Origin: Patescibacteria group bacterium
Lineage (GTDB): Bacteria; Patescibacteriota; Patescibacteriia; UM-FILTER-42-10
Assembly (NCBI GenBank): GCA_041666485.1
Contig: JBAYGW010000002.1
Location: 7,711 to 71,710 of the forward strand
Length of the DNA stretch: 64,000 bases
Reading direction: 5' to 3'
Below are positions 8,711-30,289 of the stretch, piece after piece. A program made the translations under genes and the position numbers. Position 1 is the first letter of the stretch; each line of letters begins with the position of its first letter. A model generated the notes under the pieces. That model did no database searches. It was given only the letters and a program-made list of their open reading frames with translations, and was not told the DNA's origin.

Positions 8711-9268
8711 ATGGATACATTATTATGGGTCGTCGTGGGGTTGGTTGCCATAGTTGGTCTATGGTTCATTGCCACCTACAATGGACTCATCCGGTTAAAG
8801 AACAGGACTGACGAAGCTTGGTCCGATATTGACGTACAATTAAAACGCCGATACGATTTAATACCCAATCTTGTTGAAACAGTAAAAGGTTACGCAACAC
8901 ATGAACGTGAACTCTTTGAGAAAGTGACACAAGCTCGCAGTAATGCTATGCAGGCAACTACTCCGGAAACACAGGCTAAAGCTGAAAATATGTTGGCCGG
9001 TACATTGAAATCGCTTTTTGCCGTCGCAGAGAATTATCCGGACTTAAAGGCCAATCAGAATTTTGCAAAACTGCAGGATGAATTGTCCGACACTGAAAAT
9101 AAGATTCAGGCTTCCAGAAGATTCTACAATGGAAACGTACGCGACTTCAACACCAAGATTCAGGTCTTCCCCACCAATATGGTCGGCAATATGCTCGGTT
9201 TCAAACAAAGAGAATTCTTTGAGATTGAAGACGCGACACAGAAAGAAAATGTTGCTGTAAAATTCTAA
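8711..9268 (+). CDS. lemA: LemA family protein.
   Basis: N-terminal TM segment, then DVQLKRRYDLIPNLVETVKGYATHERELFEKVTQAR, ...NYPDLKANQNF...L.DEL..TENKI..SRRFYN. This is the canonical LemA signature. An RBS-like aaaggaa sits upstream of the ATG. Confidence 0.85.
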   Translation: MDTLLWVVVGLVAIVGLWFIATYNGLIRLKNRTDEAWSDIDVQLKRRYDLIPNLVETVKGYATHERELFEKVTQARSNAMQATTPETQAKAENMLAGTLKSLFAVAENYPDLKANQNFAKLQDELSDTENKIQASRRFYNGNVRDFNTKIQVFPTNMVGNMLGFKQREFFEIEDATQKENVAVKF

Positions 9269-12737: not shown

Positions 12738-12761
12738 ATAGTATATAATTTGAATATTAGA

Positions 12762-12786
12762 ACCGGGCGTCTTCTGTCCGGTTTTT
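12762..12786 (+). terminator. Rho-independent terminator downstream of clpC. It lies inside the N-terminal extension of the annotated comFC ORF.
   Basis: The ACCGG-gcgtcttctgt-CCGGT hairpin is followed by TTTTTG. Confidence 0.5.
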
Positions 12787-12794
12787 GTTATCAC

Positions 12795-13532
12795 ATGAAT
12801 ATATTAAATAAACTATTACAAAATATCATTGACCTGATTTTTCCTTCAAACTGTTTTGGGTGTGGTATTGAAGGAGTCTGGTTATGCAAAGATTGTATTG
12901 AGAAAATACCTATACTCAACAAGAATAATTGTTTCTGGTGTAATAATAAAGACAATAACATTTGTTTTTCTTGTCAGCAAGAATCAAAATTATCAGCATT
13001 ATTCGTCATTACCGCATATCAGAATCCTCTGTTTCAGGATATGCTGCACAATTTAAAATATAATTTTGCTTCCAGCATTGGTGATACATTTAAACTATTG
13101 CTAATCAAATATTTTGAGCAAAATAAAATTGACATTATCAATAAAGATTCCGTAATCGTTCCTATTCCATTACACAGAAAACGTTTAGCAGAACGGGGTT
13201 TCAACCAGTCAGAACTTATCGGCAACCATATTGCTGAAATATTACAGTTGAAGATTAATCCCAAATTATTAATCAGAAAAAAGAATACAAAATCGCAAAT
13301 GACCCTGAACAGAGCTGACCGGATTCTGAATATGCAGAAGTCATTTGTCTGCCCGGATCCTACCCAAATCAAAGGAAAAGACATTATTTTGATAGATGAT
13401 GTGCTTACTACCGGAACAACAATTAGAGAGGCCGCGCAAGCACTAAAATCCTCGGGCTGCAGGTCTGTAAGCGCTATTGTGCTAGCAAAAGGGGGGTTGA
13501 TAAATATGAAAAATAATGTTAGGATAGATTAG
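12795..13532 (+). CDS. comFC: ComF family protein, a phosphoribosyltransferase-domain competence protein ComFC.
   Basis: N-terminal zinc-finger-like CFGCG...CKDC. HRKRLAERGFNQSELI. PRTase motif DIILIDDVLTTGTT. I moved the start from the track ORF (12750) to the ATG at 12795 because the first 15 codons overlap the clpC terminator hairpin. Confidence 0.75.
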   Translation: MNILNKLLQNIIDLIFPSNCFGCGIEGVWLCKDCIEKIPILNKNNCFWCNNKDNNICFSCQQESKLSALFVITAYQNPLFQDMLHNLKYNFASSIGDTFKLLLIKYFEQNKIDIINKDSVIVPIPLHRKRLAERGFNQSELIGNHIAEILQLKINPKLLIRKKNTKSQMTLNRADRILNMQKSFVCPDPTQIKGKDIILIDDVLTTGTTIREAAQALKSSGCRSVSAIVLAKGGLINMKNNVRID

Positions 13533-13542
13533 TCCAAAAAAT

Positions 13543-13632
13543 GGAGGAGTGCCAGAGCGGTCGAATGGGACAGTCTTGAAAACTGTTAGACCTGCAAGGG
13601 TCTCGGGGGTTCGAATCCCTCCTCCTCCGCCA
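13543..13632 (+). tRNA. tRNA-Ser (anticodon TGA).
   Basis: Manual fold: acceptor GGAGGAG/CTCCTCC, anticodon stem ACAGT/ACTGT with loop CTTGAAA (anticodon UGA), a long variable arm, T-arm GGGGG-TTCGAAT-CCCTC, discriminator G, and an encoded CCA. Confidence 0.85.
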
Positions 13633-13816
13633 TTCGACTCCTCCTCACTATCGCTCGGAGTCGCTCATGGCCTATCGGCCACTCAATTAGTAACATACTA
13701 ATTAACAGCTAAAGTCGAATGCCTCGAGAGAAATTGAGAGGCACTCGCTCGTGACCTATCGGCCACTCATCAAAAACTACTGAGTCGAGTGTCTCGAGCA
13801 TGGCCGAGAGACATAA
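13633..13816 (+). repeat. Array of about three hairpin-forming repeat units in the tRNA trailer (family copy A). It ends in a conserved gene-leader element at 13784-13816.
   Basis: Units begin TCGA(C/A/G)T and contain the inverted repeats CGACTCC...GGAGTCG, GCCTC...GAGGC and TGGCC-tat-CGGCC-A. Similar units recur at 14525-14722 and 15423-15532. Confidence 0.55.
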
Positions 13817-13827
13817 CATATAGATTT

Positions 13828-14070
13828 ATGGAGAAATGGTATATCTATATAGCGCGATGTAAAGATAATAGTATATATACTGGTTTAAGCAGTGATCCAA
13901 ATAAAAGGATAATAAGACACAATGAAGGAAAAGGCGCACTATGGATAAAACAACATGGGGAAGCCAAAATTGTATATACAGAAGAATACGATAATTATCT
14001 GGATGCGCATAGAAGAGAATTACAGATAAAAAGATGGTCACGCAAAAAGAAAGAAGCATTGTATTGTTGA
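13828..14070 (+). CDS. Small GIY-YIG nuclease-superfamily protein (YhbQ-like), about 80 aa.
   Basis: MEKWYIYIARCKDNSIYTGLSSDPNKRIIRHNEG matches the GIY-YIG core (Y.Y.....G..Y.G.T.....R...H). The track ORF starts at a GTG at 13789. The ATG at 13828, just 3' of the conserved leader repeat, is the more likely start. Confidence 0.7.
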   Translation: MEKWYIYIARCKDNSIYTGLSSDPNKRIIRHNEGKGALWIKQHGEAKIVYTEEYDNYLDAHRRELQIKRWSRKKKEALYC

Positions 14071-14108
14071 AGAAAATAAGAAGCACTTTATTACAAAAAT
14101 TAGCACTC

Positions 14109-14129
14109 GGAGAGATACCCAAGAGGTTG
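14109..14129 (+). repeat. A 21-nt copy of the 5' end of tRNA-Ser(GCT) (acceptor plus D-arm). It forms a direct repeat with 14431-14451 and flanks the second GIY-YIG gene.
   Basis: GGAGAGATACCCAAGAGGTTG is identical at both positions. The left copy is followed by two short hairpins, CCAGCC-cgag-GCTGG and CGGCC-ttg-GGCCG, instead of the rest of the tRNA. Confidence 0.6.
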
Positions 14130-14185
14130 CCAGCCCGAGGCTGGTCGGCCTTGGGCCGAAAGGGGCTAGCAAAAAGACAAATAAC

Positions 14186-14452
14186 ATGTATTATGTTTAT
14201 ATAATTCAAAGTAAAAAAGATGGCCGTTTGTACAAAGGTTTTACCTCAGATTTAGAAAATCGATTAAAAGAGCATAAAGAAGGGAAAACAAAGTCAACTA
14301 AAAGTTTCAGACCCTGGAAACTGGTTTACTATGAAGTATTTGTAGATAAAAAGGATGCATTAAGAGAGGAATTATTTCTGAAGTCAGGAAAAGGTAAAAG
14401 CACATTAAAAGAGAAATTAAAAAACTACATGGAGAGATACCCAAGAGGTTGA
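14186..14452 (+). CDS. Small GIY-YIG nuclease-superfamily protein (YhbQ-like), 88 aa. Its last 7 codons and its stop are encoded by the 5' end of the downstream tRNA-Ser.
   Basis: MYYVYIIQSKKDGRLYKGFTSDLENRLKEHKEG is a GIY-YIG motif. The C-terminus ...MERYPRG* is read from atggagagatacccaagaggtTGA, which is tRNA positions 1-22. Confidence 0.7.
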   Translation: MYYVYIIQSKKDGRLYKGFTSDLENRLKEHKEGKTKSTKSFRPWKLVYYEVFVDKKDALREELFLKSGKGKSTLKEKLKNYMERYPRG

Positions 14453-14524
14453 AGGGGCGGGTTTGCTAAACCTGTAGGTCGGGTTTTTCCCGGCGCGAGG
14501 GTTCGAATCCCTCTCTCTCCGCCA
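14431..14524 (+). tRNA. tRNA-Ser (anticodon GCT).
   Basis: Manual fold: acceptor GGAGAGA/TCTCTCC, anticodon stem CGGGT/ACCTG with loop TTGCTAA (anticodon GCU), a long variable arm, T-arm GAGGG-TTCGAAT-CCCTC, discriminator G, and CCA. Confidence 0.8.
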
Positions 14525-14722
14525 CTCGATTCGCGTCTCACTAATTCGGCGCTCACTCGTGGTCTATGGTATCTAACGATACCCCCGACCATTTCATATT
14601 AGAATCGAGTGTCTCGAGAGAAATCGAGAGGCACTCGCTCATGGCCTATTGGCCACTCAATTAGTAATCTAACAACTTTATATATAAGTCGAATGCCCTG
14701 AGTAGTGCCGAAGGGCATAATG
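14525..14722 (+). repeat. tRNA-trailer hairpin repeat array (family copy B).
   Basis: Contains CTCGATTCGCG..., then TCGAGTGTCTCGAGAGAAATCGAGAGGCACTCGCTCATGGCCTATTGGCCACTCAATTAGTAA, which is near-identical to a unit at 13718-13775. It ends in the hairpin GCCCT-gagtagtgccga-AGGGC-ATAATG. Confidence 0.55.
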
Positions 14723-14772
14723 AAGGAAAATCTGCTATAATATAAGTACAGTTTATTATTTATATTACTTAT

Positions 14773-15303
14773 ATGGACTTAGACATTAAAAAACCAGAAC
14801 AGACAACGGAAGACATATCATCTGCTCAAGATGTCGGAGATACCCTGTTGCAATGGAAATTCCCTGAATACGAAGAACATGAAAGAGGAATTGTATGGTA
14901 TGTAATTGCCGGTTTGGTATCAGCAGCATTCTTAACATATGCTATTCTAGTATCAAACTACCTCTTTGCATTAATCGTAGTAATTGTTGACATGATAATT
15001 TTGATCCAGATTAATAGAAAACCGGATCGGATTGATTTTAAGATTACCGATGAAGGATTAATGATTGGTTCCTCTTTTACGCCCTATAGCAACATCAGAA
15101 AATTCTGGATTATCTACAATCCGCCAAAAGTAAAGACTCTATACATCAATTACAAATCAACAATCCGGCCGGACATTACCATACCGCTTGAAAATAAAAA
15201 TCCGTTGCGTGTACGTGAAATGTTGCTTAAATATATTGAAGAAGATTTGGAAAAAGAAGACGAGTCCAATAGTGAACAAATTAGAAAATTACTTAAATTA
15301 TAA
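14773..15303 (+). CDS. Hypothetical membrane protein (176 aa, two TM segments).
   Basis: Complete ORF. Hydrophobic segments VWYVIAGLVSAAFLTYAIL and LFALIVVIVDMIILIQI. No motif I recognise. Confidence 0.5.
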   Translation: MDLDIKKPEQTTEDISSAQDVGDTLLQWKFPEYEEHERGIVWYVIAGLVSAAFLTYAILVSNYLFALIVVIVDMIILIQINRKPDRIDFKITDEGLMIGSSFTPYSNIRKFWIIYNPPKVKTLYINYKSTIRPDITIPLENKNPLRVREMLLKYIEEDLEKEDESNSEQIRKLLKL

Positions 15304-15345
15304 AATTCGCATTACCAAGTTAAGATTTCTGCCCTGCTAAAACAT

Positions 15346-15422
15346 GCGGTCATAGCTCAGTTGGATAGAGCGTAGGATTGCGGATCCTAAGGTCGGAGGT
15401 TCAAATCCTCCTGACCGCACCA
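15346..15422 (+). tRNA. tRNA-Arg (anticodon GCG as I read it; an unusual isoacceptor).
   Basis: Manual fold: GCGGTCA/TGACCGC acceptor, D-arm GCTC-AGTTGGATA-GAGC, anticodon stem TAGGA/TCCTA with loop TTGCGGA, T-arm GGAGG-TTCAAAT-CCTCC, discriminator A, and CCA. Confidence 0.65.
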
Positions 15423-15532
15423 CTCGACTCACCCCGCCAAGGCGGGATTCGCTCGTGGTCTGCGACCACATCATTTTAATAAAGGCATATCAAAATAAAA
15501 TCGAGTGCCTCGAGCGTAGCCGAGAGACATAA
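15423..15532 (+). repeat. tRNA-trailer hairpin repeat array (family copy C), ending in the conserved gene-leader element at 15501-15532.
   Basis: CTCGACTCACCCCGCCAAGGCGGGATTCGCTCGTGGTCTGCGACCAC ... TCGAGTGCCTCGAGCGTAGCCGAGAGACATAA. The last part matches 13784-13816 and sits about 15 nt upstream of the recG ATG. Confidence 0.55.
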
Positions 15533-15546
15533 ATTATCTACGCATT

Positions 15547-17628
15547 ATGGCAACAGAATTATCTACTCCTATATCAAATTTCCCGACAGTAGGCCCCCGC
15601 ACGGCTCAACGCCTAATAAAACTAGGAATTGAAACGGCAGAAGACCTGCTTTTTTATTTTCCTTTCCGATATGAAGATTACAGCAATATATCAGTCATTG
15701 GTGAAGTTCAAAACAATCAGACAGCTACCATAAAGGCTAGAGTTGATTTGATCCGTAATAAGCGTTCGCCAAGAAAAAGAATGATTGTTACTGAAGCTAT
15801 GTTAGGCGACGATACCGGATCAATCAAAGCTGTCTGGTTCAGACAGCCATATCTGACTAAAACCATATTGCCGGGCGATGAACTATTTCTCTCGGGAAAA
15901 ATTGAAGGTGATTTATTTTCATTTCAAATGATTAATCCGATTTATGAAAAAGTAAAATCCATCCCCTTACACACTGCCCGGCTGGTACCGGTTTATCCCA
16001 CCACTTCCGGAATTACCCAAAAACAGCTGAGATTTCTGGTAAATGTGGCTCTACTTGTCGCTGATCATGTTACTGATTGGCTACCAATTTCAATAAAAAG
16101 AAAGTACAACTTTTTACAACTTAAGGAAGCGATTAGGCAAATTCATTACCCTAAAACAAAAGGGTTGCTGGAAGAAGCCCGCGCAAGAATTGGTTTTGAT
16201 GAGTTGTTTCTTATTCAACTTGGTGCGCTAAAAATAAAATCCGATCTTGCTGAAAAAGAAGCACCCAGCATAAATTTTCAAGAAAAAGAAATAAAATCTT
16301 TTGTTAATAATTTGCCGTTTGTCTTGACTGCATCACAAAAGAAATCTTCCTGGGAGATTATTAAAGATCTGGAAAAACACCATCCGATGAACCGGCTACT
16401 GGAGGGAGATGTCGGCTCCGGCAAAACAGTTGTTGCCGCTCTTAGTATACTCAATACGGCATTGAACGGATTTCAAGTAGCATTGATGGCACCGACAGAA
16501 ATACTGGCACAGCAACATTTTGATACGCTCAACCGGCTATTTCAAAAAGAAAAAAGCATCAAACTTTGCCTGCTAACAAGTCACACGGTAAAAATTGGTA
16601 AAGGAACAATGATCAAAAAAACAGACTGCCTTAAACAAATAAGTTCCGGGGAAATTAATGTAGTAATCGGCACCCATGCCATAATACAGAAGAGTGTATC
16701 CTTTAATAATCTGGCTTTTGTCATTATTGACGAACAACATCGGTTCGGAGTGAAACAAAGAGGTGAAATGAAAGTCAAGAATCCAAAAACCGTCAACTGG
16801 GCTCCTCATTTCCTTTCCATGACCGCCACGCCAATTCCCCGTTCTTTAGCGCTGACTGTTTATGGAGACCTGGATTTATCAATAATCAACGAATTGCCTA
16901 AGGGGAGAAAACGGATTTCAACAAGTATCATTCCTAAAGTAAAAAGACTGGCTGCCTACGATTTTATTGAAAAAGAGATTCAGAAAGGGAGGCAAGTTTT
17001 TGTTATCTGTCCTTTAATTGAGGAATCCGATAAATTGGGTGTTAAGGCAGTCACATCTGAATACGAAAAACTGAACAATAACATTTTCCCGAATATTGCG
17101 ATCGGCATGCTCCATGGCAAAATGAAGGCTGATCAAAAAGAAGATGTAATGAAAAAGTTTCTGGCAAATGAATACAGAATATTGGTATCAACATCCGTCA
17201 TTGAAGTAGGCGTGGATGTTCCAAATGCCACTATCATGATGATTGAGGGGGCAGAACGCTTCGGATTGGCACAATTACATCAATTCAGGGGTCGGGTAGG
17301 CCGGAGCACACATCAGTCCTATTGCTTTCTTTTTACTGATCAGGCCGGACCGGATGTGTTAAATAGGCTGGGAGCCTTAGTAAAAAGCCATGACGGTTTT
17401 GCCCTGGCGGAAAAAGACCTGGCGCTTCGGGGACCGGGGGAAGTATATGGCAGCAAACAATCCGGTTATTTCCCCAGTTTAAAAATCGCGAGCTTAACCG
17501 ATTATGAATTGGTGAAAAAAGCCCGACTTGAGGCCGGGCAATTATTAAGAAGCGATCCTCGCCTGACTGAAAATCAGTATATACGAAAAAAGATTACTGA
17601 ACTCACTAAAAATATTCACCTGGAATAA
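15547..17628 (+). CDS. recG: ATP-dependent DNA helicase RecG.
   Basis: 693 aa. Wedge-domain region, helicase motif I GDVGSGKT, motif II IIDEQHRFGV, LSMTATPIPRSL, HGKM...VSTSVIEVGVDVPNA, and QLHQFRGRVGR. Confidence 0.85.
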   Translation: MATELSTPISNFPTVGPRTAQRLIKLGIETAEDLLFYFPFRYEDYSNISVIGEVQNNQTATIKARVDLIRNKRSPRKRMIVTEAMLGDDTGSIKAVWFRQPYLTKTILPGDELFLSGKIEGDLFSFQMINPIYEKVKSIPLHTARLVPVYPTTSGITQKQLRFLVNVALLVADHVTDWLPISIKRKYNFLQLKEAIRQIHYPKTKGLLEEARARIGFDELFLIQLGALKIKSDLAEKEAPSINFQEKEIKSFVNNLPFVLTASQKKSSWEIIKDLEKHHPMNRLLEGDVGSGKTVVAALSILNTALNGFQVALMAPTEILAQQHFDTLNRLFQKEKSIKLCLLTSHTVKIGKGTMIKKTDCLKQISSGEINVVIGTHAIIQKSVSFNNLAFVIIDEQHRFGVKQRGEMKVKNPKTVNWAPHFLSMTATPIPRSLALTVYGDLDLSIINELPKGRKRISTSIIPKVKRLAAYDFIEKEIQKGRQVFVICPLIEESDKLGVKAVTSEYEKLNNNIFPNIAIGMLHGKMKADQKEDVMKKFLANEYRILVSTSVIEVGVDVPNATIMMIEGAERFGLAQLHQFRGRVGRSTHQSYCFLFTDQAGPDVLNRLGALVKSHDGFALAEKDLALRGPGEVYGSKQSGYFPSLKIASLTDYELVKKARLEAGQLLRSDPRLTENQYIRKKITELTKNIHLE

Positions 17629-17629
17629 T

Positions 17630-19015
17630 TTATTTAGTAAAGGCGATCTCCGATGCTTCTTTTATGCTTTTGACGTTATAGCACTCCGCATCTTTGTGAG
17701 CTTTTGCATTATTGGGAATAATTATTTTATTGTATCCGAGTTTTGCCGATTCTTCCAGACGCTTTTCAATATTAATTACCGGGCGAACTTCACCCCCTAA
17801 ACCGACCTCCCCCATAACTGAAAGCGTATTGGGCAGCGGGATATTCTTCAATGCGGAAATAATAGCAAGACACACGGCCAGATCAGCGGATGGTTCTTTT
17901 ATTTTCACCCCTCCGACAACATTGATATGAATATCCTGATCACCGATTCTTAGACCCATGCGTTTTGTCAGCACCGCCAATAACAACTGCAGTCTTTTCT
18001 GATCATAGCCAGAAGTTTTTCTTTGCGGATAACCGAATCCGGCTTTTGTTACCAACGCCTGTACTTCCACCAGAAATGGCCGGCTGCCTTCCATAATACA
18101 AGTGATCACCGATCCCGGAATTTGCTTTGCCCGGTCTTTCAATAACAGCTCTGATGGATTAGCAACTTCTGCTAAACCGCTTTCTTTCATTTCAAAGATA
18201 CCAATTTCGGCAGTAGAACCGAAACGGTTTTTTATCGCCCTCAAAACTCTCAGTGACTGATAACGGTCACCTTCCAGATACAAAACGCTGTCCACCAGAT
18301 GCTCCAAGGTACGTGGACCGGCTACCGCACCCTGTTTAGTAACATGCCCGATAATAATGATCGCTATTTTGCTTTTTTTTGCCACTTCCATCAACTGTGC
18401 CGTAACCGCTTTTATCTGCTGAAGACTGCCGGGTTGTGAATTAATTTCACTTGAAGTTAGCGTTTGGATTGAGTCAATCACCGCCACCCGCGGTTTTTTA
18501 TCATTTAAAGTTGCACATACCATTTCCGCGTCTGTCTCTGAAATAAAATGTAAATCTTTTGCGGTAATTTGCAGTCGATCCATCCGCTGTTTAACCTGTT
18601 CCGCCGATTCTTCTCCAGATACATAGATTACAGTCTCATTCTGGCTTATTCTCGCGGTTACCTGCAGAACAAGCGTTGATTTCCCGATTCCCGGATCACC
18701 ACCGAGCAAAACCACAGAACCGGACACCAACCCATCACCGAGCACTCGGTCAAATTCCTTAAAACCGGTCCTGAATTTAGGCGTATCCCCGCCCTGAATA
18801 TCATTAAACGAAATAGTCTCGGCCAAAGGCGACAGAGGTTTTTCACTGACTGATGCGACATATCTTCCCTCCACAATAGTGCCCCACTGCCCGCATTCTG
18901 AGCATCTGCCCTGCCATTTTGGGTATTGCGCATCGCAGTGTTCACAAGTGAATATTTTTTTTTCTTTGCTAACCATTATTTTAAGAAGAAAAGACTCTCC
19001 GAATACGGAGGCCAC
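17630..19015 (-). CDS. radA: DNA repair protein RadA/Sms.
   Basis: N-terminal C4 zinc finger CEHCDAQYPKWQGRCSECGQWGT, Walker A GGDPGIGKSTLVLQ, and a C-terminal Lon-protease-like domain. It is convergent with recG, with no spacer between them. Confidence 0.9.
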   Translation of the reverse strand: MASVFGESFLLKIMVSKEKKIFTCEHCDAQYPKWQGRCSECGQWGTIVEGRYVASVSEKPLSPLAETISFNDIQGGDTPKFRTGFKEFDRVLGDGLVSGSVVLLGGDPGIGKSTLVLQVTARISQNETVIYVSGEESAEQVKQRMDRLQITAKDLHFISETDAEMVCATLNDKKPRVAVIDSIQTLTSSEINSQPGSLQQIKAVTAQLMEVAKKSKIAIIIIGHVTKQGAVAGPRTLEHLVDSVLYLEGDRYQSLRVLRAIKNRFGSTAEIGIFEMKESGLAEVANPSELLLKDRAKQIPGSVITCIMEGSRPFLVEVQALVTKAGFGYPQRKTSGYDQKRLQLLLAVLTKRMGLRIGDQDIHINVVGGVKIKEPSADLAVCLAIISALKNIPLPNTLSVMGEVGLGGEVRPVINIEKRLEESAKLGYNKIIIPNNAKAHKDAECYNVKSIKEASEIAFTK

Positions 19016-19032
19016 AATTAATTATTCAGAGG

Positions 19033-19785
19033 CTATTTTTTTAACCCTGATTCAACCAGACTTTTTAAATCATCATAGCTTACCGTACCGCTGACTTCCT
19101 GATCATTAATAAAATAATACGGCAAACCGGCAATTTCCAATTCCGCCGCCTGATCAATACCATCCTGCACCAGGGAAGCCGTTGCACCGGAATCAACACA
19201 ACTGTTGAATTCATCCAGTTTTAGACCAAGGTCTTTTGCTAAATCAGCTATTCTCCCTTTGTTCAAGAACTGACTGTTTTTCAGCAACAGATCATGCATC
19301 TCCCAAAACTTTCCCTGAGCCTGGGCACAACGTCCGGCAAACGCCGCATTAACACTTGAAGCGGTCGGGACATCTTTCCATACCAGGTTAACCTCGTCAG
19401 GATAATCCGCCAATATTTTATTGATGGTTTTATTCATTGATTCACAGTTGGCGCAACTATAATCACCATATTCTATAATTGTAACCTTTGCATCGGCATT
19501 GCCTTTAATCGGGTCCGTGTCCAGCACGGTCGGTACATATGATTTAACTGAAACAAATAAATCATTTGCAACCACCCCTCTTTCCACCAAAGAAAAATCA
19601 CTAATTGATTCCGGGGTTTTCAATGCTGAACCGCGGTATATAGAAACGCCAAAAAGTACGATAACTACAAAACCCGCCAGACTCACCAAGCCGGTTATAA
19701 TTAATAACTTCGGAAAATGCACTGAAACTTTTTCTTTTGTTTTAATTCCTGAAGAAATGTTTTTCTCAACTTTTTTTATCGCCAT
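19033..19785 (-). CDS. DsbA-like thiol:disulfide oxidoreductase, membrane-anchored (thioredoxin fold).
   Basis: N-terminal TM segment and a CxxC active site (DYSCANCES). Overall DsbA/thioredoxin_4-like layout. Confidence 0.6.
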   Translation of the reverse strand: MAIKKVEKNISSGIKTKEKVSVHFPKLLIITGLVSLAGFVVIVLFGVSIYRGSALKTPESISDFSLVERGVVANDLFVSVKSYVPTVLDTDPIKGNADAKVTIIEYGDYSCANCESMNKTINKILADYPDEVNLVWKDVPTASSVNAAFAGRCAQAQGKFWEMHDLLLKNSQFLNKGRIADLAKDLGLKLDEFNSCVDSGATASLVQDGIDQAAELEIAGLPYYFINDQEVSGTVSYDDLKSLVESGLKK

Positions 19786-19795
19786 TTATCCTCTA

Positions 19796-21031
19796 TTATT
19801 TTAACCTGATAGAATTAAGCTCCCCGGTAGTTTTGTCGGTAAAATACAAGATTCTTTCGTCTGGTGACAGATATATCTGATCAATAACGTAACCACCACC
19901 ATCAACATTTGAAGGTGTCGCTAGCTTTGTCTTTGCTCCTGTCGTCAGATCAACCCGATATATATTATCATTTATTGAGTCGGCTAATTCAGGGTATAAG
20001 CCGCTTCCTTTTTCAAGTCCGATTGGAACGCCGCAATACAGAGCACCGCCGCCGATTGCACATTTGCTAGGCCAAGTTTTGAGCCCGGTGTTAATTGTAT
20101 TAGCACCCGTGTTGTCACCGCCGACATCCGCTATCTTTAGTTCCGGATTATAATCCGTAGTAGCGGAGTAAGTGCTGTAAATCATCTGGGTCCCGGTATT
20201 ATTCCATATCCCTTCAAACCCCCTGCCTTGAACCTCCAACGATTTGAAATTTTCACCATTTTGTCCGACAAAGAACACATCCTGCGCATCACCTGCTGAA
20301 GTCTTTCTGAATGTTGCAACCATCTGACTGGTCGGAGACCAATTGACCTCAACATCACTACTTTTATCCCCCAGTAATTCAATCTGCCTCATTGCTGTCC
20401 CATCCACATTGGAAACTCCCAGGAAGTTGTTGTTGGTGTTTTCATCAATGTATTCAAATCCCAACTGTTCGCCGGTTGCGGAAAATTTGATTTCATTCAG
20501 TTCTTTCGGCAGAGTTATCTGACTTTTGGAATCAAAATCATAAACAATATTCGTACCGTCCGGGAAAGTAATGATCGCTTTATTTCCGGTTGGAGACCAT
20601 TCTACACTTTCCGCATCCGGAAAAAGATCTTCTGTTAAAAGGCTCTTAATCTTTCCATCGGAAGAAATCTGATAAAATTTTCCGGTTTCTTTGTCATAAA
20701 ACCGCAGATTTGTGCCGATCACTTTTGCCGCCTTAATATCACCGTCAGCTACATTATTGGTCAGTGTATTTCCGCCATTGGCGATCGGTGACACCACTGG
20801 CAGGCCGGCGTTCGTATTGGCATTTACATTCTCAACCGGGCGGTTAACATTTTGGTTGGCAATCGGCAGTTCACCGGAATTAACGATCACTCCGTTGATA
20901 TTTACCTGACCGGGACCGGGACCTACATCACCGCGGAAAAATATTACATAAATCAAATATCCCATAAATATCACAATTGCAATAAAACCGATGATAATCC
21001 CTGCAATTTTAAGAAAATTTTTATATTTCAT
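19796..21031 (-). CDS. Membrane-anchored protein with a TolB-like (PD40-type) beta-propeller domain.
   Basis: N-terminal TM segment IAGIIIGFIAIVIFMGYLIYVIFF. Repeated segments such as FSATGEQLGF, WSPTSQMVAT and YLSPDERILYF resemble PD40/WD40-like propeller blades. Confidence 0.45.
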   Translation of the reverse strand: MKYKNFLKIAGIIIGFIAIVIFMGYLIYVIFFRGDVGPGPGQVNINGVIVNSGELPIANQNVNRPVENVNANTNAGLPVVSPIANGGNTLTNNVADGDIKAAKVIGTNLRFYDKETGKFYQISSDGKIKSLLTEDLFPDAESVEWSPTGNKAIITFPDGTNIVYDFDSKSQITLPKELNEIKFSATGEQLGFEYIDENTNNNFLGVSNVDGTAMRQIELLGDKSSDVEVNWSPTSQMVATFRKTSAGDAQDVFFVGQNGENFKSLEVQGRGFEGIWNNTGTQMIYSTYSATTDYNPELKIADVGGDNTGANTINTGLKTWPSKCAIGGGALYCGVPIGLEKGSGLYPELADSINDNIYRVDLTTGAKTKLATPSNVDGGGYVIDQIYLSPDERILYFTDKTTGELNSIRLK

Positions 21032-21060
21032 AATTTTTGGTGATTGCTACTTGATTATAA

Positions 21061-22008
21061 TTAATTGGCACATTCCATATTACTTAAATATCCGCATCCG
21101 GCTTTAATTTGAGCTGCCGTTAATTGTGTTCCATCCTTATGTGTATAAGGATAGCCATCATCCAAAACATAACTGCAAATTGCTTCGTCAATTGTGAAAT
21201 TACCATACGGTCCGTTTAATACGCATCTTTCCCCCTGTTGATCACCACCCTCTATGGGTACTTTCGGACATGAAGTACCCACATTCCATACTTTATCCAT
21301 AAAATTCCAAAATACTTTACCACAGTCCTTGAAGGCTAGATTTACGGAAGTAGTCGTTTCAAAATCCTGTTGAGTTGTGATTGCTCCATGATTCATAATC
21401 TTGACCGTCTTCACCTCTTCCGCGGTAAACATGGCTGGGGTTGTGTTAGTGCCGATCACTTTACAGACTTTATCCGCATCATTATTCCAAACACCGATGC
21501 ATTTGTCCTGATTTTCGGCGTTAATAACAATGGATGAACCGCATCTGACCGGTTCTTTTTCCCCTTTTATATTTGTGGTTAGTTCTGTATCAAAATCGCA
21601 TTTTCTGGATGCTTCTCCGCCGAGCGTCATAGTGTCAACAACCGGTATCACAAGCGGCTGCAATGAAACAATATTCGGATTGATGGCGTTTAATATCATA
21701 TACGAAGTGAGTGCCAAAATCAGTCCGAAAACAGCGCTCATTATTTGTTCTTTAGCACCGCTGATTATGGAAGTATTGCCGGCCGCTGTAATCCATTTGT
21801 ATCCGGCAATCACCATCATGGCCGCGGCCAAAATTCCGGCGGAAGTAACAAAAAACTCATAAAATATTCTGATATACTCCCCCAAATCATCCACTGATTT
21901 TGTATCACCAATCGGAATGTTCAGCGGTATCGGCGCGGCAGAGACAATCAGCGGTAGCAATATTATCCCCAGTGAAATGACAAATATTTTGAGAGATGAT
22001 TTATTCAT
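21061..22008 (-). CDS. TrbC/VirB2-like pilin-fold protein with a C-terminal Cys-rich extension (315 aa).
   Basis: A signal peptide followed by two long hydrophobic helices (FFVTSAGILAAAMMVIAGYKWI and IMSAVFGLILALTSYMILNAI), which is the VirB2/TrbC topology. It is the last gene of the VirB4-containing minus-strand cluster. Confidence 0.45.
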   Translation of the reverse strand: MNKSSLKIFVISLGIILLPLIVSAAPIPLNIPIGDTKSVDDLGEYIRIFYEFFVTSAGILAAAMMVIAGYKWITAAGNTSIISGAKEQIMSAVFGLILALTSYMILNAINPNIVSLQPLVIPVVDTMTLGGEASRKCDFDTELTTNIKGEKEPVRCGSSIVINAENQDKCIGVWNNDADKVCKVIGTNTTPAMFTAEEVKTVKIMNHGAITTQQDFETTTSVNLAFKDCGKVFWNFMDKVWNVGTSCPKVPIEGGDQQGERCVLNGPYGNFTIDEAICSYVLDDGYPYTHKDGTQLTAAQIKAGCGYLSNMECAN

Positions 22009-22032
22009 AGTACTATTGTCAATAATTTTGAG

Positions 22033-23214
22033 TTATTTTGAATCAGGTAAATTATATAGAGCTAATAAAGCTTGGATTGATTTATTTAATTTCTTCTCTT
22101 CTTCTTTTCGTCTTTTGCTAAGATCGGCGATTTCTTTATTTCTGTTAATAATCGCCAATACTACACGCATTGTCCAAGCCGGCAACATGTCAATATAAGG
22201 GATAAGCTCCACACTATTGATTGCCCATCCGATTACCTTAGCCCTACCGTCACCAGGTTTTTCAATTTTTAAAACGAATGCTGCAATTAATAGCGGGAGA
22301 TCCAACATCCAGTCCAGCCAGGACCAAACCCCTATACTCAACGCCTCAGCTATGATATCAAATAAATCTTTTGATATAGCAACCGCCAGTACAGTGAATA
22401 ACATAATTAGCGTTCGCTTTGCCGCCGAATTTTCTTTATCTAATTTTTCAACTTTTTTCCTCTGGGCAGTTACTCTTGCCTGCTCTATAGCTATTAGATC
22501 CGTTGGTCCTGATTCATTATCATCTTCATTTTTTGATTCATTCCTCTGTTCATTCAATTGCTGTTCAGTGTCATTCTCTTCATCTTCTGAAATATTCAGC
22601 GGTTGTTCATTACCAGTATCTTCATTTTCATCTGAGTCTTCTTGATCAGACAGCGAATCATCCAAATCTCTTAGCCCGCTCAAACCACTGCTGTATTCGG
22701 GGATTATTTGACCTGTCCTAACCGTACTGTTATCCCCCCTATTCTTTGATCTTCTCATCAACCGGTTTGCTTTTGGCTGTTGTCCTTCACTAAGATCTTC
22801 GGGTAGAACATTTGCTGATGATTCTTGTATGGGAGAACCGAGATTAACCATCCCGCGTGATGCCTGTCTTTTCTTTTTATACTCTCTTTTTCTGTTGCTC
22901 AGTTCTCTCTGCTTGTCTTTTTCGGTTACCGCTTCTCTTGAATAATCTCCTCCAACTTGAGGCAGAGCGGACTCCGTGCTGTTCGGCTGGTCAGTGTCCC
23001 TGATCACTACTTTAATTTTCGTTCCGCCGTCATCCGAAGGCAGTATACTGGCTGAAAATCCTTCTGAAGCTGCCGTAGATGTCCCTGGTTCATTTACTGG
23101 ATTTTGCGGAGAATTCGCCTCAGTACCGGCGGACTCTTCAGTATCAACAGCATTTACTTTAATATTATTTTCAGTGTCCTTAACTGTTTCGGATCTTTCC
23201 ATTTTTTTATGCAA
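22033..23214 (-). CDS. Hypothetical protein with an acidic, low-complexity N-terminal half and a polytopic membrane C-terminal half (393 aa).
   Basis: D/E/N/S-rich region (SDQEDSDENEDTGNEQ...). C-terminal TM helices LIMLFTVLAVAISKDLF, LPLLIAAFVLKI and VVLAIINRN. Confidence 0.5.
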   Translation of the reverse strand: MHKKMERSETVKDTENNIKVNAVDTEESAGTEANSPQNPVNEPGTSTAASEGFSASILPSDDGGTKIKVVIRDTDQPNSTESALPQVGGDYSREAVTEKDKQRELSNRKREYKKKRQASRGMVNLGSPIQESSANVLPEDLSEGQQPKANRLMRRSKNRGDNSTVRTGQIIPEYSSGLSGLRDLDDSLSDQEDSDENEDTGNEQPLNISEDEENDTEQQLNEQRNESKNEDDNESGPTDLIAIEQARVTAQRKKVEKLDKENSAAKRTLIMLFTVLAVAISKDLFDIIAEALSIGVWSWLDWMLDLPLLIAAFVLKIEKPGDGRAKVIGWAINSVELIPYIDMLPAWTMRVVLAIINRNKEIADLSKRRKEEEKKLNKSIQALLALYNLPDSK

Positions 23215-23228
23215 CTAGATTAGCTTAT

Positions 23229-23855
23229 TTACAGCCAGTTTGCTTCGTTAACTTTCCATTCATCATTTTCCAAAATAAATTTCAACTTGATGTTCTGATA
23301 AATTATTTCTGATTCCTCATTCAACTTTGTCTGATTCCTCTGCGTTGAAACGGTAAATTCCGCCTTGCCACCTTTTTCATCTATCAAATCTGTTGTTAGA
23401 CTAAGTGCCCTGGTAGTTACGCCGTAGTAAGGATCGTCAACGCTGGTTTTTGCCTGTTGATCTGCTACATAATTTTCCGCCCATTTTTTTAGACTTGCTG
23501 ACATGTATATTTCCAGCTTGGTAATATTCTCAAAATTACTGTCGGAAGAATAACTGCCGAACCTTTCAGCAAAGTTCCGTGCAATCGGCTTGAGTAGCGT
23601 TTCCACACTGGCATTAACGTCTGAAGTGGGACTGTTAGTATTGACTGATGCGCTGTTTATGTTGGCATTATCGCTGTTCGTATTTACAGACTGGTTTGTA
23701 TTAGAATTAGTCGTTGTATTTATATTTGTTACTGAGTTGGTATTTGTTTCACCTTTGCGTTCTTGGGTAAAATAGACAACGGCAAATATGACAACAGTGG
23801 CTACCAGAATAATTGCCATTGCTACAATCAGCGCTATTTTTAGCTTTTTGTTCAT
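23229..23855 (-). CDS. Hypothetical membrane-anchored protein rich in Asn/Ser/Thr (208 aa).
   Basis: N-terminal TM segment IALIVAMAIILVATVVIFAVVYF, followed by an N/T/S-rich linker. Confidence 0.5.
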   Translation of the reverse strand: MNKKLKIALIVAMAIILVATVVIFAVVYFTQERKGETNTNSVTNINTTTNSNTNQSVNTNSDNANINSASVNTNSPTSDVNASVETLLKPIARNFAERFGSYSSDSNFENITKLEIYMSASLKKWAENYVADQQAKTSVDDPYYGVTTRALSLTTDLIDEKGGKAEFTVSTQRNQTKLNEESEIIYQNIKLKFILENDEWKVNEANWL

Positions 23856-23874
23856 TCGGATATTGATTTAAAAA

Positions 23875-25770
23875 TTATGATTCTGTTTGATTTGCCATTT
23901 CCGCTTCAAACTCTTTTTTGGCATCTTCAATTTCCAAAAGCTGCCGCGGATCGGATGTAATCAGCTGGTCTTCGGTATATGAAGCGACGATTTTTATTGC
24001 GGCGTGTTTTGCCCCCGCAAAAAATATGCCCTCACCTAAACCCGACTCAATTAATAAATATTTTTCTCCTTCCGTCAGCATAAAGGTGTTTACCAGGAGA
24101 TCAATGCCGGCCGGCGATTGTTTCAAAAGAAGCTGTAGAGATGAGTTGGTAACAATCGCCTGTCCGTATGGCGAGCGCAGAAAGTCATTGACATCCTGTG
24201 TGATTGTGGTGACACCAAGATAATACTTACGGCAGCGTTTCACCAGCGCATAAATAAACTTCGCCGAATCCTCATTCTGCATCAGCCACCATGCTTCATC
24301 AATTACTAGCACTCTTTTTTTCACTTCGGAACGGACAATGTTCCAGATGTAGTTGATAATAGTGTAAATTCCGATCGGACGCAGTTCGTCCTCTAAATCA
24401 CGGACACTGAACACTACCAGTTGATTTTGCGTATCAATATTGGTCGGGCTGTTAAACAGTCCGGCAAAAGTACCTTTGGTATATTTTTTCAGTCTTTCCG
24501 ATAAATCCGCGCCGCCTTCCATCCCCAATAATATATCTTCAAAATCCTGCATGATAGGCGCCTCAATTTTTGTCAGATCCGATTCAGCGGATATGTCTTT
24601 TTTCGCGTAGGTTTCAATCAATGCACGGTCAACTAGTGAATCTTCAGCATGTGTCAGATCACCAAGCATCAAACGAACTAAACCTTTGAGCGTGATTACT
24701 GCGGAACGGATAATATCCGCCGGTTTATCCCTGCCAGATACAGGACGCGGCAGATCAAACGGGTTGATCTTACTTTCGGAGTTTAAAGAGATATCAATGT
24801 AAGCACCGCCCACCGCATCGCTTAAATGTTTATACTCCATTTCTGGATCAATAATAATAACTTCCGTACCAAGCATTAAGCTCCTGAGCACTTCTAATTT
24901 AACCGCGTAGCTTTTCCCGGCGCCGGAAGTGGCAAATACGACCGTATTGGCGTTTTGCAGGCTGAAACGATCAAACAGGATTAAACTGTTGTTATGCCGG
25001 TTAACTCCGTACAAGATGCCGTTATCAGATGTAAGTTCAGACGAAATGAAAGGAAAAGACGAGGCGCAGGGAGACGTGTTCATATTAAACGTGATATACA
25101 ATTCATCATTGCCGATCGGCAAAGTTGAATTAAATCCCTGCTCCGACTGAAATAAAACGCGTTTGGAATAGACAAGTTTAGAACCGAATATGGATTCAAT
25201 TCTTTCTGTGATTCGGTCTAATTCTTTTGTATCATCCGCGTAGGCAGAGATATATAAAGCATATTGAAAGAATTTTTCCGTGCCCTGAGTAATTTCATCC
25301 CGGAGCATTTCAATGTCTTTTAACGCGGTCTCTCTCAAAGGATCGCGCGGAGCGCCTTTTTCCGCATCAGAAAGAATCTGCGCTTCCAGCGCACCGACCT
25401 TGTTCTTTAACTGTTTCAAAATTGCCTCGGGTTTTACCGGATAAAAATACATGGCAATGTCCATCGGGATATTCAGATTGATCACCGGGGCAAACCAGCC
25501 GACACTGATGTACCTGGGATAAGTAACCACAAAAACAGTACTGACAAATTTGGTGCCGAGCTGGACATAGCGCGCGTCAACTTTGAAAGCTGAAGGGGCT
25601 ATTAAATCACGGACTGAAACCACACCGCGCTGAAAAGATCTTTCCGCTTCAAGAATTTCTTTCTCTTCCTGAGCAAGCGTCCTTTCGCGTTCAGCCTGTT
25701 TCAGGGAAGATGCTTCCTTCTTTGCTTCCTCTTCATCTTTGATATCCGCCTTTTTGAATAGTTGAACCAT
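23875..25770 (-). CDS. virB4: VirB4/TrbE/CagE-family T4SS ATPase.
   Basis: Walker A VVFATSGAGKSYAV and Walker B VLVIDEAWWLM, with VirB4-like overall length and motif spacing. Confidence 0.8.
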   Translation of the reverse strand: MVQLFKKADIKDEEEAKKEASSLKQAERERTLAQEEKEILEAERSFQRGVVSVRDLIAPSAFKVDARYVQLGTKFVSTVFVVTYPRYISVGWFAPVINLNIPMDIAMYFYPVKPEAILKQLKNKVGALEAQILSDAEKGAPRDPLRETALKDIEMLRDEITQGTEKFFQYALYISAYADDTKELDRITERIESIFGSKLVYSKRVLFQSEQGFNSTLPIGNDELYITFNMNTSPCASSFPFISSELTSDNGILYGVNRHNNSLILFDRFSLQNANTVVFATSGAGKSYAVKLEVLRSLMLGTEVIIIDPEMEYKHLSDAVGGAYIDISLNSESKINPFDLPRPVSGRDKPADIIRSAVITLKGLVRLMLGDLTHAEDSLVDRALIETYAKKDISAESDLTKIEAPIMQDFEDILLGMEGGADLSERLKKYTKGTFAGLFNSPTNIDTQNQLVVFSVRDLEDELRPIGIYTIINYIWNIVRSEVKKRVLVIDEAWWLMQNEDSAKFIYALVKRCRKYYLGVTTITQDVNDFLRSPYGQAIVTNSSLQLLLKQSPAGIDLLVNTFMLTEGEKYLLIESGLGEGIFFAGAKHAAIKIVASYTEDQLITSDPRQLLEIEDAKKEFEAEMANQTES

Positions 25771-25782
25771 AGTATCCTTTTT

Positions 25783-26496
25783 TTATTTTTTATCGTCTTC
25801 TTCCATTGAGCTAGAATCTTCTTCTACCTGAAGTTTATCCAAATCTACTAACTGCTCCTGGCTGAAAACTTCCGGATTATATGTATTGTAGAAAAGCTCA
25901 ATAATACTTTGAGTGTCCAGCTGTACTGATTTCAGCCCGATTGATGACAATCCGTCAGTCACATAATCTACCCTTTTGAATAATTCAGTCCGGTATTTAT
26001 CAAACTTTTTACGTTTCAAATGGATAACCGACGTCGGTGACAGTACTTCCTTCAATCTGGAAAAATATTTTTTTTGTTTATCAGAAATTGGTGAATAAGG
26101 CACAATGACATAAAATCTTTTGCTCATAATATCAGCAATCTCCACCAGTTCTTTAATGTATTGCTGATACTCAGCAGTCTGCATCCTAAGCAGTTCATTG
26201 GACTGTTCTTTCTCCACTTTCTTCAGGCGGTCCAGATATTCTTCAATATTCAATTTCCTGGATTGGATGACAATCTGGATGGAAAAATCAAATGAATTAA
26301 GGAACTGAGTATAACCCTGGATAACAGCCACCTGCTCATCTTCCGATTTCAACGCGAAATTTATTGAAGAAACTAAGATTATCGCCCTCAAGGTTCCGTC
26401 CTTCATCGCAACCACGTTATCTTTAATCTCCAAAATATCAAGATGACTCTGCGTGGAAGCTTTTGGTTTTTGTCCTGCTAACTGGTTAGAATGCAT
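25783..26496 (-). CDS. Hypothetical protein in the T4SS-like cluster (237 aa).
   Basis: Complete ORF, translationally adjacent to virB4. No motif I recognise. Confidence 0.45.
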   Translation of the reverse strand: MHSNQLAGQKPKASTQSHLDILEIKDNVVAMKDGTLRAIILVSSINFALKSEDEQVAVIQGYTQFLNSFDFSIQIVIQSRKLNIEEYLDRLKKVEKEQSNELLRMQTAEYQQYIKELVEIADIMSKRFYVIVPYSPISDKQKKYFSRLKEVLSPTSVIHLKRKKFDKYRTELFKRVDYVTDGLSSIGLKSVQLDTQSIIELFYNTYNPEVFSQEQLVDLDKLQVEEDSSSMEEDDKK

Positions 26497-26513
26497 ATTT
26501 GTTTTATTTAGAC

Positions 26514-26951: not shown

Positions 26952-26956
26952 ATAGG

Positions 26957-29300: not shown

Positions 29301-29383
29301 GAAAAATCTTTTATATTATAGCATAACTGATAATAATTCACAACATTACATACAGGCACAATCGCGCTTGCTTTGGCCATTGA

Positions 29384-30272: not shown

Positions 30273-30289
30273 CCAACCGTACCTTCTCA

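Follow-up and report, generated by a model that had tools for sequence, protein, structure and literature searches.

A widespread, apparently uncurated structured element anchored at the 3´ ends of tRNA and tmRNA genes and linked to minimal GIY-YIG nucleases

Three plus-strand tRNA genes in a stretch of 64,000 nucleotides (nt) from a Patescibacteria genome (assembly GCA_041666485.1, contig JBAYGW010000002.1, positions 7,711 to 71,710 of the forward strand; in the following, the window) are directly followed by hairpin-rich repeats. We found that these trailer repeats are copies of one four-helix element of about 110 nt (median length 110 nt). It represents a widespread, apparently uncurated family of structured elements that is anchored at the ends of tRNA and transfer-messenger RNA (tmRNA) genes and linked to minimal GIY-YIG nucleases. 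The repeats had been noticed in a preliminary description of the window, and all the features described there are real and lie where they had been placed. Directly after the CCA, the three trailers open with TTCGACTC, CTCGATTC and CTCGACTC, which is the reported start (C/T)TCGA(C/T)TC. The units called near-identical between the first two trailers share 87% identity over 60 nt (13710-13769 versus 14600-14659), and the reported 33-nt block is present twice (13785-13821 versus 15501-15537, 86% identity over 37 nt), stopping 12 nt before the ATG of the nuclease gene GIY-YIG 1 (13828) and 15 nt before that of recG (15547). The sequence TCGARTGYCYYGAG occurs five times in the window, always on the plus strand and between 13715 and 15514 (mean of shuffled sequences 0.14, none of 100 shuffles reaching five), and the 26-nt sequence CTCGCTCRTGRCCTATYGGCCACTCA occurs three times with none expected. 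All three trailers fold better than shuffled sequences (z -2.8 to -5.1). The repeats had been assigned to every tRNA trailer, which goes too far: the trailer of the fourth tRNA, tRNA-Arg(ccg), has GC-rich hairpins but no family member in the covariance model search.

The consensus starts with the 5´ strand of helix P1 (YTCGAYTC), followed by the P2 hairpin of free sequence, the junction YCGCTCRTGG, the P3 hairpin (UGGnn...nnCCA), an AT-rich spacer (J31), the 3´ strand of P1 (GARTCGAR) and the P4 hairpin (TGYCCY-GAGCGAAGTCGA-RGGRCA). P1 is a long-range helix with strands 70-90 nt apart that encloses P2 and P3, and P4 is located 3´ of it. J31 varies from about 10 to 35 nt and is not conserved in sequence, and P3 holds a nested hairpin in some copies. 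The 5´ strand of P1 begins directly after the CCA, or after the discriminator base where the CCA is not encoded. With this architecture the modular units of the preliminary description can be redrawn. Its pieces are real, but the boundaries between them were drawn wrongly: the (C/T)TCGA(C/T)TC start pairs with the TCGAG at the head of the 33-nt block to form P1, and the block as a whole corresponds to the 3´ strand of P1 plus P4, the core of its first occurrence being contributed by a truncated tandem copy (1b in Table 1).

A covariance model (R1), built from 32 sequences of other lineages only and run unfiltered over the whole window, found three full-length matches (68-79 bits), each beginning at the first nucleotide after CCA, plus two truncated tandem copies. 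Elsewhere in the 64 kb R1 found nothing convincing (best E value 0.11), and three weaker matches (E 2e-4 to 0.4) mirror the known copies on the reverse strand. The tandem form with an extra 3´ half is also present in loci L121, L119, L002 and L003.

The structure is supported by abundant covariation. RNAalifold recovers P1, P2 and P4 from the 32 diverse sequences. In their alignment, for which the sequences had been selected by a P1 filter, 91.7% of the cells are paired compared to 80.2% after shuffling and at most 49% with slid partners. Among 108 model matches, whose alignment was fitted to the model, 91.0% are paired compared to 76.5% after shuffling (none of 500 shuffles reaches the observed value) and at most 44.5% in the slid controls; double changes occur here at 18 of the 21 pairs. 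The 5´ ends of the element were set independently of the alignment, by the annotation of tRNA and tmRNA genes. Positions that the search patterns leave free covary as well: the inner pair of P4 is TA in 62, CG in 56, TG in four and CA in two cases, and the fourth pair of P3, determined by simple pairing with the first downstream CCA, is TA in 36, CG in 30 and something else in five cases. Sequences of loops and junctions are kept across phyla, for instance GAGCGAAGUCGA and CGCUCRUGG. For copies 1 and 2 of the window the single-sequence minimum free energy fold is identical to the P1-P4 consensus (z -4.8 for copy 2). Folding of single sequences does not distinguish the strands, both of which fold well; the strand signal comes only from the asymmetry between G·U and A·C pairs (77 versus 35, with UG 27 versus CA 4 at one P4 pair), which points to a structure of the sense strand, that is, RNA or top-strand DNA. 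A pseudoknot between GCUC of junction J23 and GAGC of the P4 loop was considered and found to be unsupported, as the only variable pair gives A·C mismatches and no compensation.

Where the element sits was determined for the 108 model matches, which come from 100 GTDB loci, with tRNA and tmRNA ends called by ARAGORN. CCA lies directly 5´ of 92 of the 108 copies, and in 61 the first nucleotide lies no more than 1 nt from a tRNA or tmRNA end called on that strand. The offset is 0 at 44 of these 61 junctions and -1 at 16, the latter at genes without an encoded CCA. The junctions span 14 tRNA isotypes and 12 tmRNAs, and the element favours the tmRNA gene as an anchor (12 of 61). Most of the remaining copies are located on recognisable 3´ fragments of tRNA or tmRNA genes, and the orientation is always that of the tRNA transcript. 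In L134 and L141, two loci reached from the protein side, the match begins one nucleotide past the end of the Rfam tmRNA. The element is also found between neighbouring tRNAs of one cluster in several genomes. Of the bystander tRNAs in the fetched loci, only 11 of 89 carry a variant of it, thus it is facultative. A guide-like match of the variable parts P2 and J31 to the tRNA upstream was rejected, since neither identity nor complementarity exceeds that of permuted pairs. At the tmRNA gene a recurrent gene order was observed (L134 1442-2321, L141 160-989): smpB (seen in L134), tmRNA, element, GIY-YIG gene, infC, rpmI (called in L134) and rplT.

To what extent the family occurs in other genomes can be seen with the P4 pattern TCGARTGYCYYGAGNNNNNNYGARRGRC, which leaves the pairing positions free. 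Scanned against a collection with one genome per species, it matches at least 119 stretches, with about 17 estimated by chance. The family is present in more than 100 genomes, mostly Patescibacteria of many classes. Among the matches listed, these include Saccharibacteria, Komeili-, Buchanan-, Colwell-, Woese-, Uhr-, Kaiser-, Doudna- and Berkelbacteria and Paceibacterota; other labels among them are Opitutia/Verrucomicrobia, Kiritimatiellia, Acidobacteriota, Nitrospira and 'Gammaproteobacteria'. A single Saccharibacteria contig of 1.21 Mb contains four dispersed strict matches. The proposal of a dispersed repeat family tied to tRNA loci is therefore borne out in relatives and far beyond them, and the alternative that the repeats arose by coincidental local duplication, in favour of which one could count that all window copies lie within 2 kb, is refuted: other genomes, which belong to many classes and several phyla, contain more than 100 copies, and these show covariation. 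A pattern centred on P3, TCGCTCRTGRCCTATYGGCCAC, has no match in genome contigs and none in viral contigs, and matches two metagenome contigs of the Joint Genome Institute (JGI), showing that the exact P3 variant of the window is clade-specific. The P4 pattern was found in one of 2.9 million viral contigs, which makes a phage origin unlikely.

No Rfam 15 family matches the element. Only tRNA, tmRNA and rRNA were found in the window at the gathering threshold, in region 13400-15700 at E values up to 5, in L002, and in 15 canonical and three further loci. Group I introns are common in Patescibacteria tRNA genes (PMC13011429), and none was detected in these searches. We did not find a description of the element in the literature that could be searched, including searches with literal sequence strings, although this does not disprove that one exists elsewhere.

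The association with nuclease genes is strong. A GIY-YIG open reading frame (ORF) starts within 250 nt downstream of 33 of 124 pattern matches (about 27%), compared to about 0.8% expected from the density of such ORFs (51 in 838 kb of loci). The associated ORFs encode 80-95 amino acids (aa), and their ATG lies 4-70 nt, in many copies 4-10 nt, behind P4. In many copies the 3´ strand of P4 contains GAGG or AAGG, resembling a Shine-Dalgarno sequence. Seen from the other side, a hairpin of the P4 type precedes 34 of the 51 GIY-YIG ORFs, in most cases at a distance of 9-60 nt. In a reciprocal test starting from the protein, homologues of GIY-YIG 1 (66-73% identity) were located in three independent contexts, one tRNA-Ser(gct) and two tmRNA-infC loci, and in all three a model match ends 12-40 nt upstream. 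Both nuclease genes of the window, GIY-YIG 1 and GIY-YIG 2, are intergenic ORFs with a GIY-YIG catalytic domain (PF01541).

Many of the other 17 GIY-YIG ORFs lie directly at the 5´ end of a tRNA or extend into it. This is a second class of cassette, to which GIY-YIG 2 of the window belongs. GC-rich hairpins (14130-14165) and GIY-YIG 2 lie here between two copies of the tRNA-Ser(gct) 5´ part. By its layout, this cassette looks like an insertion into the D-arm region of tRNA-Ser(gct) that brought a replacement 5´ part, with 14109-14129 as the scar. The same layout was observed in L002, L037, L056 and L081, and in L041, L046 and L124 the ORF abuts the tRNA 5´ end.

Comparison of the syntenic region in relatives with 90, 78, 76 and 75% identical RecG proteins revealed that presence of the element is polymorphic. 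R1 matches were found in L002, L003 and L009 and none in L004 and L006. The element together with GIY-YIG 1 is present in the window and in L002 (90%) and absent in L004 (76%) and L006 (75%). L006 contains tRNA-Ser(tga), 12 nt, tRNA-Ser(gct), 'aatatgaaaatctgctataat', ORF176, tRNA-Arg, 'ttatagtatt' and the ATG of recG, and the hairpin units are absent. In L002 the first trailer is identical to that of the window, the sequence after tRNA-Ser(gct) is wholly different, and 10 nt separate tRNA-Arg and recG. The site between tRNA-Arg and recG is empty in L002, L003 and L006, where the block of 111 nt (15423-15533) is missing as a clean indel; the occupied site CCA-element-TTATC corresponds to the empty site CCA-TTATC, without target duplication. 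In the alignment with relatives the second trailer sits between the CCA and the conserved ORF176 promoter AAATCTGCTATAAT. Related units are found elsewhere, after a tRNA-Ser(gct) remnant in L003 and after tRNA-Ser(gga) in the unrelated JGI contig L009. The clean indels and the absence at the same sites in relatives indicate that the element is not only facultative but also mobile.

In L002, L003 and L006, recG starts 10-13 nt past the CCA of tRNA-Arg and has no visible Shine-Dalgarno sequence. This short distance suggests that tRNA and mRNA are co-transcribed with a very short leader even where the element is missing.

We propose that the element is the non-coding leader module of a selfish, homing-type cassette, which encodes a GIY-YIG nuclease of the YhbQ/YazA/Slx1 type, is anchored at tRNA ends and is co-transcribed with the tRNA; we would give this explanation a probability of about one half. 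The full form would consist of element and ORF, as in 13633-14070, and the copies without ORF in front of ORF176 and recG (14525-14717 and 15423-15529) would be non-autonomous or decayed derivatives. Since the element brings neither promoter nor terminator and directly adjoins a stable-RNA gene, which is strongly transcribed, it would be transcribed by read-through from the tRNA promoter; for copy 1, the transcript probably starts at the sigma-70-like site at 13497-13525. A sigma-70 promoter (-35 and -10 boxes with 16-18 nt spacing) is not found inside any copy. Likewise, a search for intrinsic terminators found no consistent sites in the window, and a T-rich tail follows P4 in 26 of the 108 copies, approximately the chance level for the AT-rich background.

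With P1 placed exactly at the processing site, the host 3´ endonuclease would still release the correct tRNA, and the RNA downstream would be left with a fully paired and thus protected 5´ end. A paired 5´ end is a known stabiliser of bacterial mRNAs. P4 would lie on the translation initiation region of the next ORF and could gate the translation of a potentially toxic nuclease, similar to phage homing endonucleases, the translation of which is gated by hairpins. The element would spread horizontally or by recombination, in a single orientation, onto the 3´ ends of tRNA and tmRNA genes. Homologous recombination within the conserved 3´ segments of these genes, plain or triggered by the nuclease, would fit the indels between relatives, the shuffling of modules between tRNAs and the tRNA 3´ fragments that are carried along.

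Several observations weigh against this proposal. About 70% of the copies have no nuclease ORF, and the distance between P4 and the ATG varies from 4 to 70 nt. In the window copies the GAGAG is too far from the ATG (15-17 nt) for a Shine-Dalgarno role. The Pfam match covers nearly the entire protein of 80-95 aa and a separate DNA-binding domain is absent; Seg and I-TevI enzymes carry such a domain. No conserved 3´ boundary was found after the ORF, thus simple two-sided homing to new loci is hard to picture. A homologue from Firmicutes (46% identical; L138-L140, Cytobacillus) is yazA, an ordinary gene in the operon yabA-yabB-yazA-rsmI without the element, so that the protein family is not intrinsically selfish. 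Co-transcription, processing at the boundary between CCA and P1 and the effect on translation are moreover steps that we infer, and the CCA flank and the nuclease association fit transposition at the DNA level equally well. The Cytobacillus yazA is the closest homologue of GIY-YIG 1 outside the candidate phyla radiation and has a methyltransferase gene in the yabB position on one side and rsmI on the other; going by this neighbourhood, the ancestral small GIY-YIG protein may work together with RNA modification genes.

Such a DNA-level mobile element is the next explanation to be considered, and we think it somewhat unlikely. The hairpins would then be signals in folded single-stranded DNA, the element would insert 3´ of CCA and be mobilised by the Slx1-type nuclease, and the RNA structure would be incidental. 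The CCA precedes even copies that follow a mere tRNA fragment or no tRNA at all, the indel is clean, P3 itself ends with CCA, and new P1 5´ strands are sometimes found directly after this CCA. YhbQ and YazA are members of the same family as Slx1, a structure-selective nuclease (PMC7017083). An excess of G·U could be tolerated in a single DNA strand too. Measured against palindrome-associated elements of the IS200/IS605 type, the picture is mixed: the target is not duplicated, hairpins are located near both ends and CCA is the 5´ flank in 92 of 108 copies, but the tRNA specificity and the long-range helix are atypical of such elements. P1 closes a multi-branched structure over 70-90 nt with conserved unpaired nucleotides and is thus unlike the local hairpins of repetitive extragenic palindromic (REP) or IS200-type elements. 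In addition, the orientation never departs from that of the tRNA transcript, and a target of 3 nt is insufficient for the near-exclusive association with tRNA and tmRNA genes. No transposase of the GIY-YIG class is known. A Y1 transposase was not seen beside any copy, although the neighbourhoods were not searched systematically, and GIY-YIG was the one ORF seen to recur next to the copies.

The preliminary description had called the family REP-like or like miniature inverted-repeat transposable elements (MITEs), and neither label can be kept. REPs are single palindromes of 20-40 nt with a GTAG head that occur in both orientations or as inverted pairs and are not tied to tRNAs, and their enzyme is a Y1 HUH transposase and not a GIY-YIG nuclease. 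Our element has about 110 nt and several helices, and occurs in a single orientation, only after tRNA and tmRNA ends. What it shares with REPs, bacterial interspersed mosaic elements and their REP-associated tyrosine transposases (together REPINs) is that short, structured, multi-copy intergenic repeats have a nuclease gene beside a subset of them and, here by inference, are co-transcribed with their neighbours. MITEs would require terminal inverted repeats and a target site duplication at the indel, which are both missing; the complement of the 5´ end CTCGACTC... lies 24 nt inside the 3´ end, and the last 24 nt are the P4 hairpin. The pneumococcal BOX and the Neisseria Correia elements are modular MITE-like repeats that alter expression (PMC2229807). 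The element resembles them in its modular sub-units, its presumed transcription with downstream genes and its hairpins beside start codons, and differs in the lack of terminal inverted repeats and target duplication, the strictly single orientation, the exact tRNA or tmRNA junction and the conservation across phyla.

A close parallel for the proposed homing-type cassette is SegB of phage T4, whose gene is a free-standing GIY-YIG homing endonuclease gene in a tRNA cluster (PMC2330249). As with segB, a small intergenic GIY-YIG ORF is found among tRNA genes, its presence varies between relatives and flanking tRNA sequence is co-converted or duplicated. Unlike SegB, the cassettes are located in bacterial chromosomes and not in a phage, the protein consists of the catalytic domain only, and a conserved four-helix element of 110 nt, which mostly exists without an ORF, lies between tRNA end and ORF. 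In T4, RNA hairpins that cover the ribosome-binding site typically hold back the expression of such endonucleases.

A trailer RNA that serves the host would be another possibility, one that we regard as improbable. The element would then be a signal for processing by RNase P or RNase Z, a mimic of their substrates, a stable regulatory RNA derived from the trailer or a binding site for a conserved factor, and the GIY-YIG genes would home into the conserved P4. Its loop and junction sequences are conserved across phyla, it begins exactly at the mature tRNA end and it lies between adjacent tRNAs of one cluster in several genomes; a conserved multi-copy sequence is moreover a typical target of homing endonucleases. 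However, most tRNAs are without it, and in close relatives it is missing at the corresponding tRNAs with no sign of compensation; its modules are shuffled among tRNAs. To the Rfam tRNA model the element is not tRNA-like, and the variable parts show no relation to their own tRNA beyond permuted pairs.

A further reading gives the RNA an active role. The four-helix RNA could be a partner of the nuclease, a scaffold or guide that directs the cleavage of element-free tRNA genes by means of the tRNA or tmRNA 3´ end next to it in the read-through transcript, or an RNA-processing module (ribozyme or nuclease substrate) that excises the element from the tRNA precursor. We see this as a long shot. The first version, if true, would amount to RNA-dependent homing analogous to omega-RNA or bridge-RNA systems, and either version would represent a mobile element of a new class, made of RNA and protein and using the smallest nuclease fold known. 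In the OMEGA systems (IscB and TnpB with omega-RNA), RNAs from the element end lie adjacent to the nuclease gene (PMC13565253). As in these and in the IS110 bridge RNA, a multi-helix non-coding RNA at the element boundary lies beside a nuclease ORF with the host flank directly 5´; the protein is of a different class and far smaller, and the variable parts do not track the neighbouring tRNA. An HDV (hepatitis delta virus)-like ribozyme is located at the 5´ junction of R2 in rRNA genes, and a lariat-capping ribozyme lies upstream of the I-DirI homing endonuclease ORF. Similar to both, the element is found at a stable-RNA gene, without own promoter, as a structured RNA at the 5´ junction and just upstream of an endonuclease ORF. 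Unlike them, it matches no ribozyme in Rfam; cleavage by a ribozyme would leave a 2´,3´-cyclic phosphate on the tRNA.

The suggestion that the 3´-most unit is a portable promoter for the downstream gene is highly improbable. In its favour, the terminal hairpin is located 12-17 nt from two start codons of the window, and recG has no other obvious promoter. But the copies contain no internal sigma-70-like site, 12-17 nt are too short for a -10 element plus leader, and J31 is variable in length and not conserved. Furthermore, ORF176 keeps its own conserved TGCTATAAT outside the element, also in element-free relatives, and recG, 10-13 nt past the tRNA in relatives, is already served by read-through. 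The same unit had alternatively been suggested to act as a leader, and this part of the suggestion is possible, with a hairpin just upstream of the start codons.

What emerges is a structured element that is both conserved and widespread, is listed neither in Rfam 15 nor in the literature that could be searched, and has a covariance model that works. In Patescibacteria, the RNA biology of which is largely unknown, and in some Verrucomicrobiota and Acidobacteriota it marks the 3´ ends of tRNA and tmRNA genes. Much of the hairpin-rich "junk" that surrounds tRNA genes in these reduced genomes, and of the partial duplications of tRNAs found there, is explained by it. The enigmatic mini-nucleases of the YhbQ/YazA/Slx1 type are tied to a specific nucleic acid element and thereby obtain a concrete substrate candidate. 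Host genes such as recG stand behind a mobile leader. Should the RNA turn out to be catalytic or to act as a partner of the nuclease, RNA and protein would together form a mobile system of a new kind.

In the window the local gene order is ComF-like gene, tRNA-Ser(tga), GIY-YIG 1, GIY-YIG 2, tRNA-Ser(gct), ORF176, tRNA-Arg(gcg) and recG (Table 1). The genome is metagenome-assembled, and its RecG shares 100% identity with a protein in NCBI/JGI/ENA that is named 'MAG: Patescibacteria group bacterium'.

Table 1. Features of the tRNA region of the window and positions of the element parts.
Feature	Position	Strand	Remarks
ComF-like phosphoribosyltransferase	12750-13532		
Sigma-70-like promoter candidate TTGATA-17-TAGGAT	13497-13525	+	5´ of tRNA-Ser(tga); consensus match only
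tRNA-Ser(tga)	13543-13632	+	CCA encoded
Element copy 1, full length	13633-13743	+	R1 67.8 bits, E 5.6e-16; begins at CCA+1; P1-5´ 13633-13640; weak P2 13641-13660; J23 TCGCTCA 13661-13667; P3 13668-13681; AT-rich J31 13682-13711; P1-3´ 13712-13719; P4 13720-13743
Truncated tandem copy 1b	13744-13813	+	R1 35.1 bits, E 1.8e-07; CTCGCTCG 13744-13751; P3 13752-13765; P1-3´ GAGTCGAG 13782-13789; P4 13790-13813
GIY-YIG 1 ORF	13828-14070	+	80 aa, catalytic domain only; Pfam PF01541, E 4e-16; ATG 15 nt past P4
Orphan duplicate of the first 21 nt of tRNA-Ser(gct)	14109-14129	+	100% identity; comparison with L006 and L004
GIY-YIG 2 ORF	14186-14452	+	88 aa; PF01541, E 2e-18; extends 22 nt into the tRNA-Ser(gct) 5´ end
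tRNA-Ser(gct)	14431-14524	+	CCA encoded
Element copy 2, full length	14525-14633	+	R1 73.4 bits, E 2e-17; begins at CCA+1; P1 14525-14532 with 14602-14609 (8/8 paired); P2 14533-14552; J23 14553-14559; P3 14560-14591 with nested hairpin; P4 14610-14633
Truncated tandem copy 2b	14634-14717	+	R1 28.8 bits, E 8e-06; P3 14642-14655; P1-3´ 14686-14693; P4 14694-14717
Extended -10 TGCTATAAT of ORF176	14733-14741	+	Outside the element; kept in element-free relatives
ORF176	14773-15303	+	
tRNA-Arg(gcg)	15346-15422	+	CCA encoded
Element copy 3, full length	15423-15529	+	R1 78.8 bits, E 8e-19; begins at CCA+1; P1 15423-15430 with 15498-15505 (6/8 paired); P2 15431-15448; J23 15449-15455; P3 15456-15468; P4 15506-15529
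recG	15547-17628	+	ATG 17 nt past P4
tRNA-Arg(ccg), fourth tRNA	50881-50957	-	

The trailer of tRNA-Arg(ccg) (50790-50880, minus strand) contains the hairpins TGCGCCcgaGGCGCA and CCCGCCtctGGCGGG as well as GATTCCTCATGG, which resembles the J23/P3 part. Having neither P1 nor P4 nor a model match, it may be a decayed relic of the element.

Rearranged tRNA genes were also observed in the relatives. In L004 (8588-9056 and 9790-9990) an insert interrupts the resident tRNA-Arg(gcg) and brings along another, non-identical tRNA-Arg(gcg). A 5´ remnant of the resident tRNA-Ser(tga) precedes a complete copy that has come in and is identical to the tRNA-Ser(tga) of the window. tRNA genes in this clade seem to be replaced by incoming alleles. 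L002 (1276-2040) contains four copies of the tRNA-Ser(gct) 3´ end AATCCCTCTCTCTCCGCCA, the fourth diverged at the first three bases. GC-rich hairpin modules of a different family, 160-180 nt long, separate the first three copies, and the third and fourth flank about 370 nt with a third GIY-YIG ORF (1760-2011); the hairpin modules were found in L003 and L008, too. A GC-rich palindrome of about 42 nt, CCCGCCTGCC...GGCAGGCGGG, is located inside tRNA remnants or loops in either orientation (L004 at about 8826-8868, L009 at about 13069-13112, L031 and L037) and looks like a separate, truly palindromic family of mini-elements.

Further downstream in the window, at about 19000-31000 on the minus strand, a block resembling type IV secretion or conjugation genes (TraG/VirB4-like ATPase, TraC-like and PrgI-like) follows radA and a DsbA-like gene. 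This block is syntenic in all relatives fetched.

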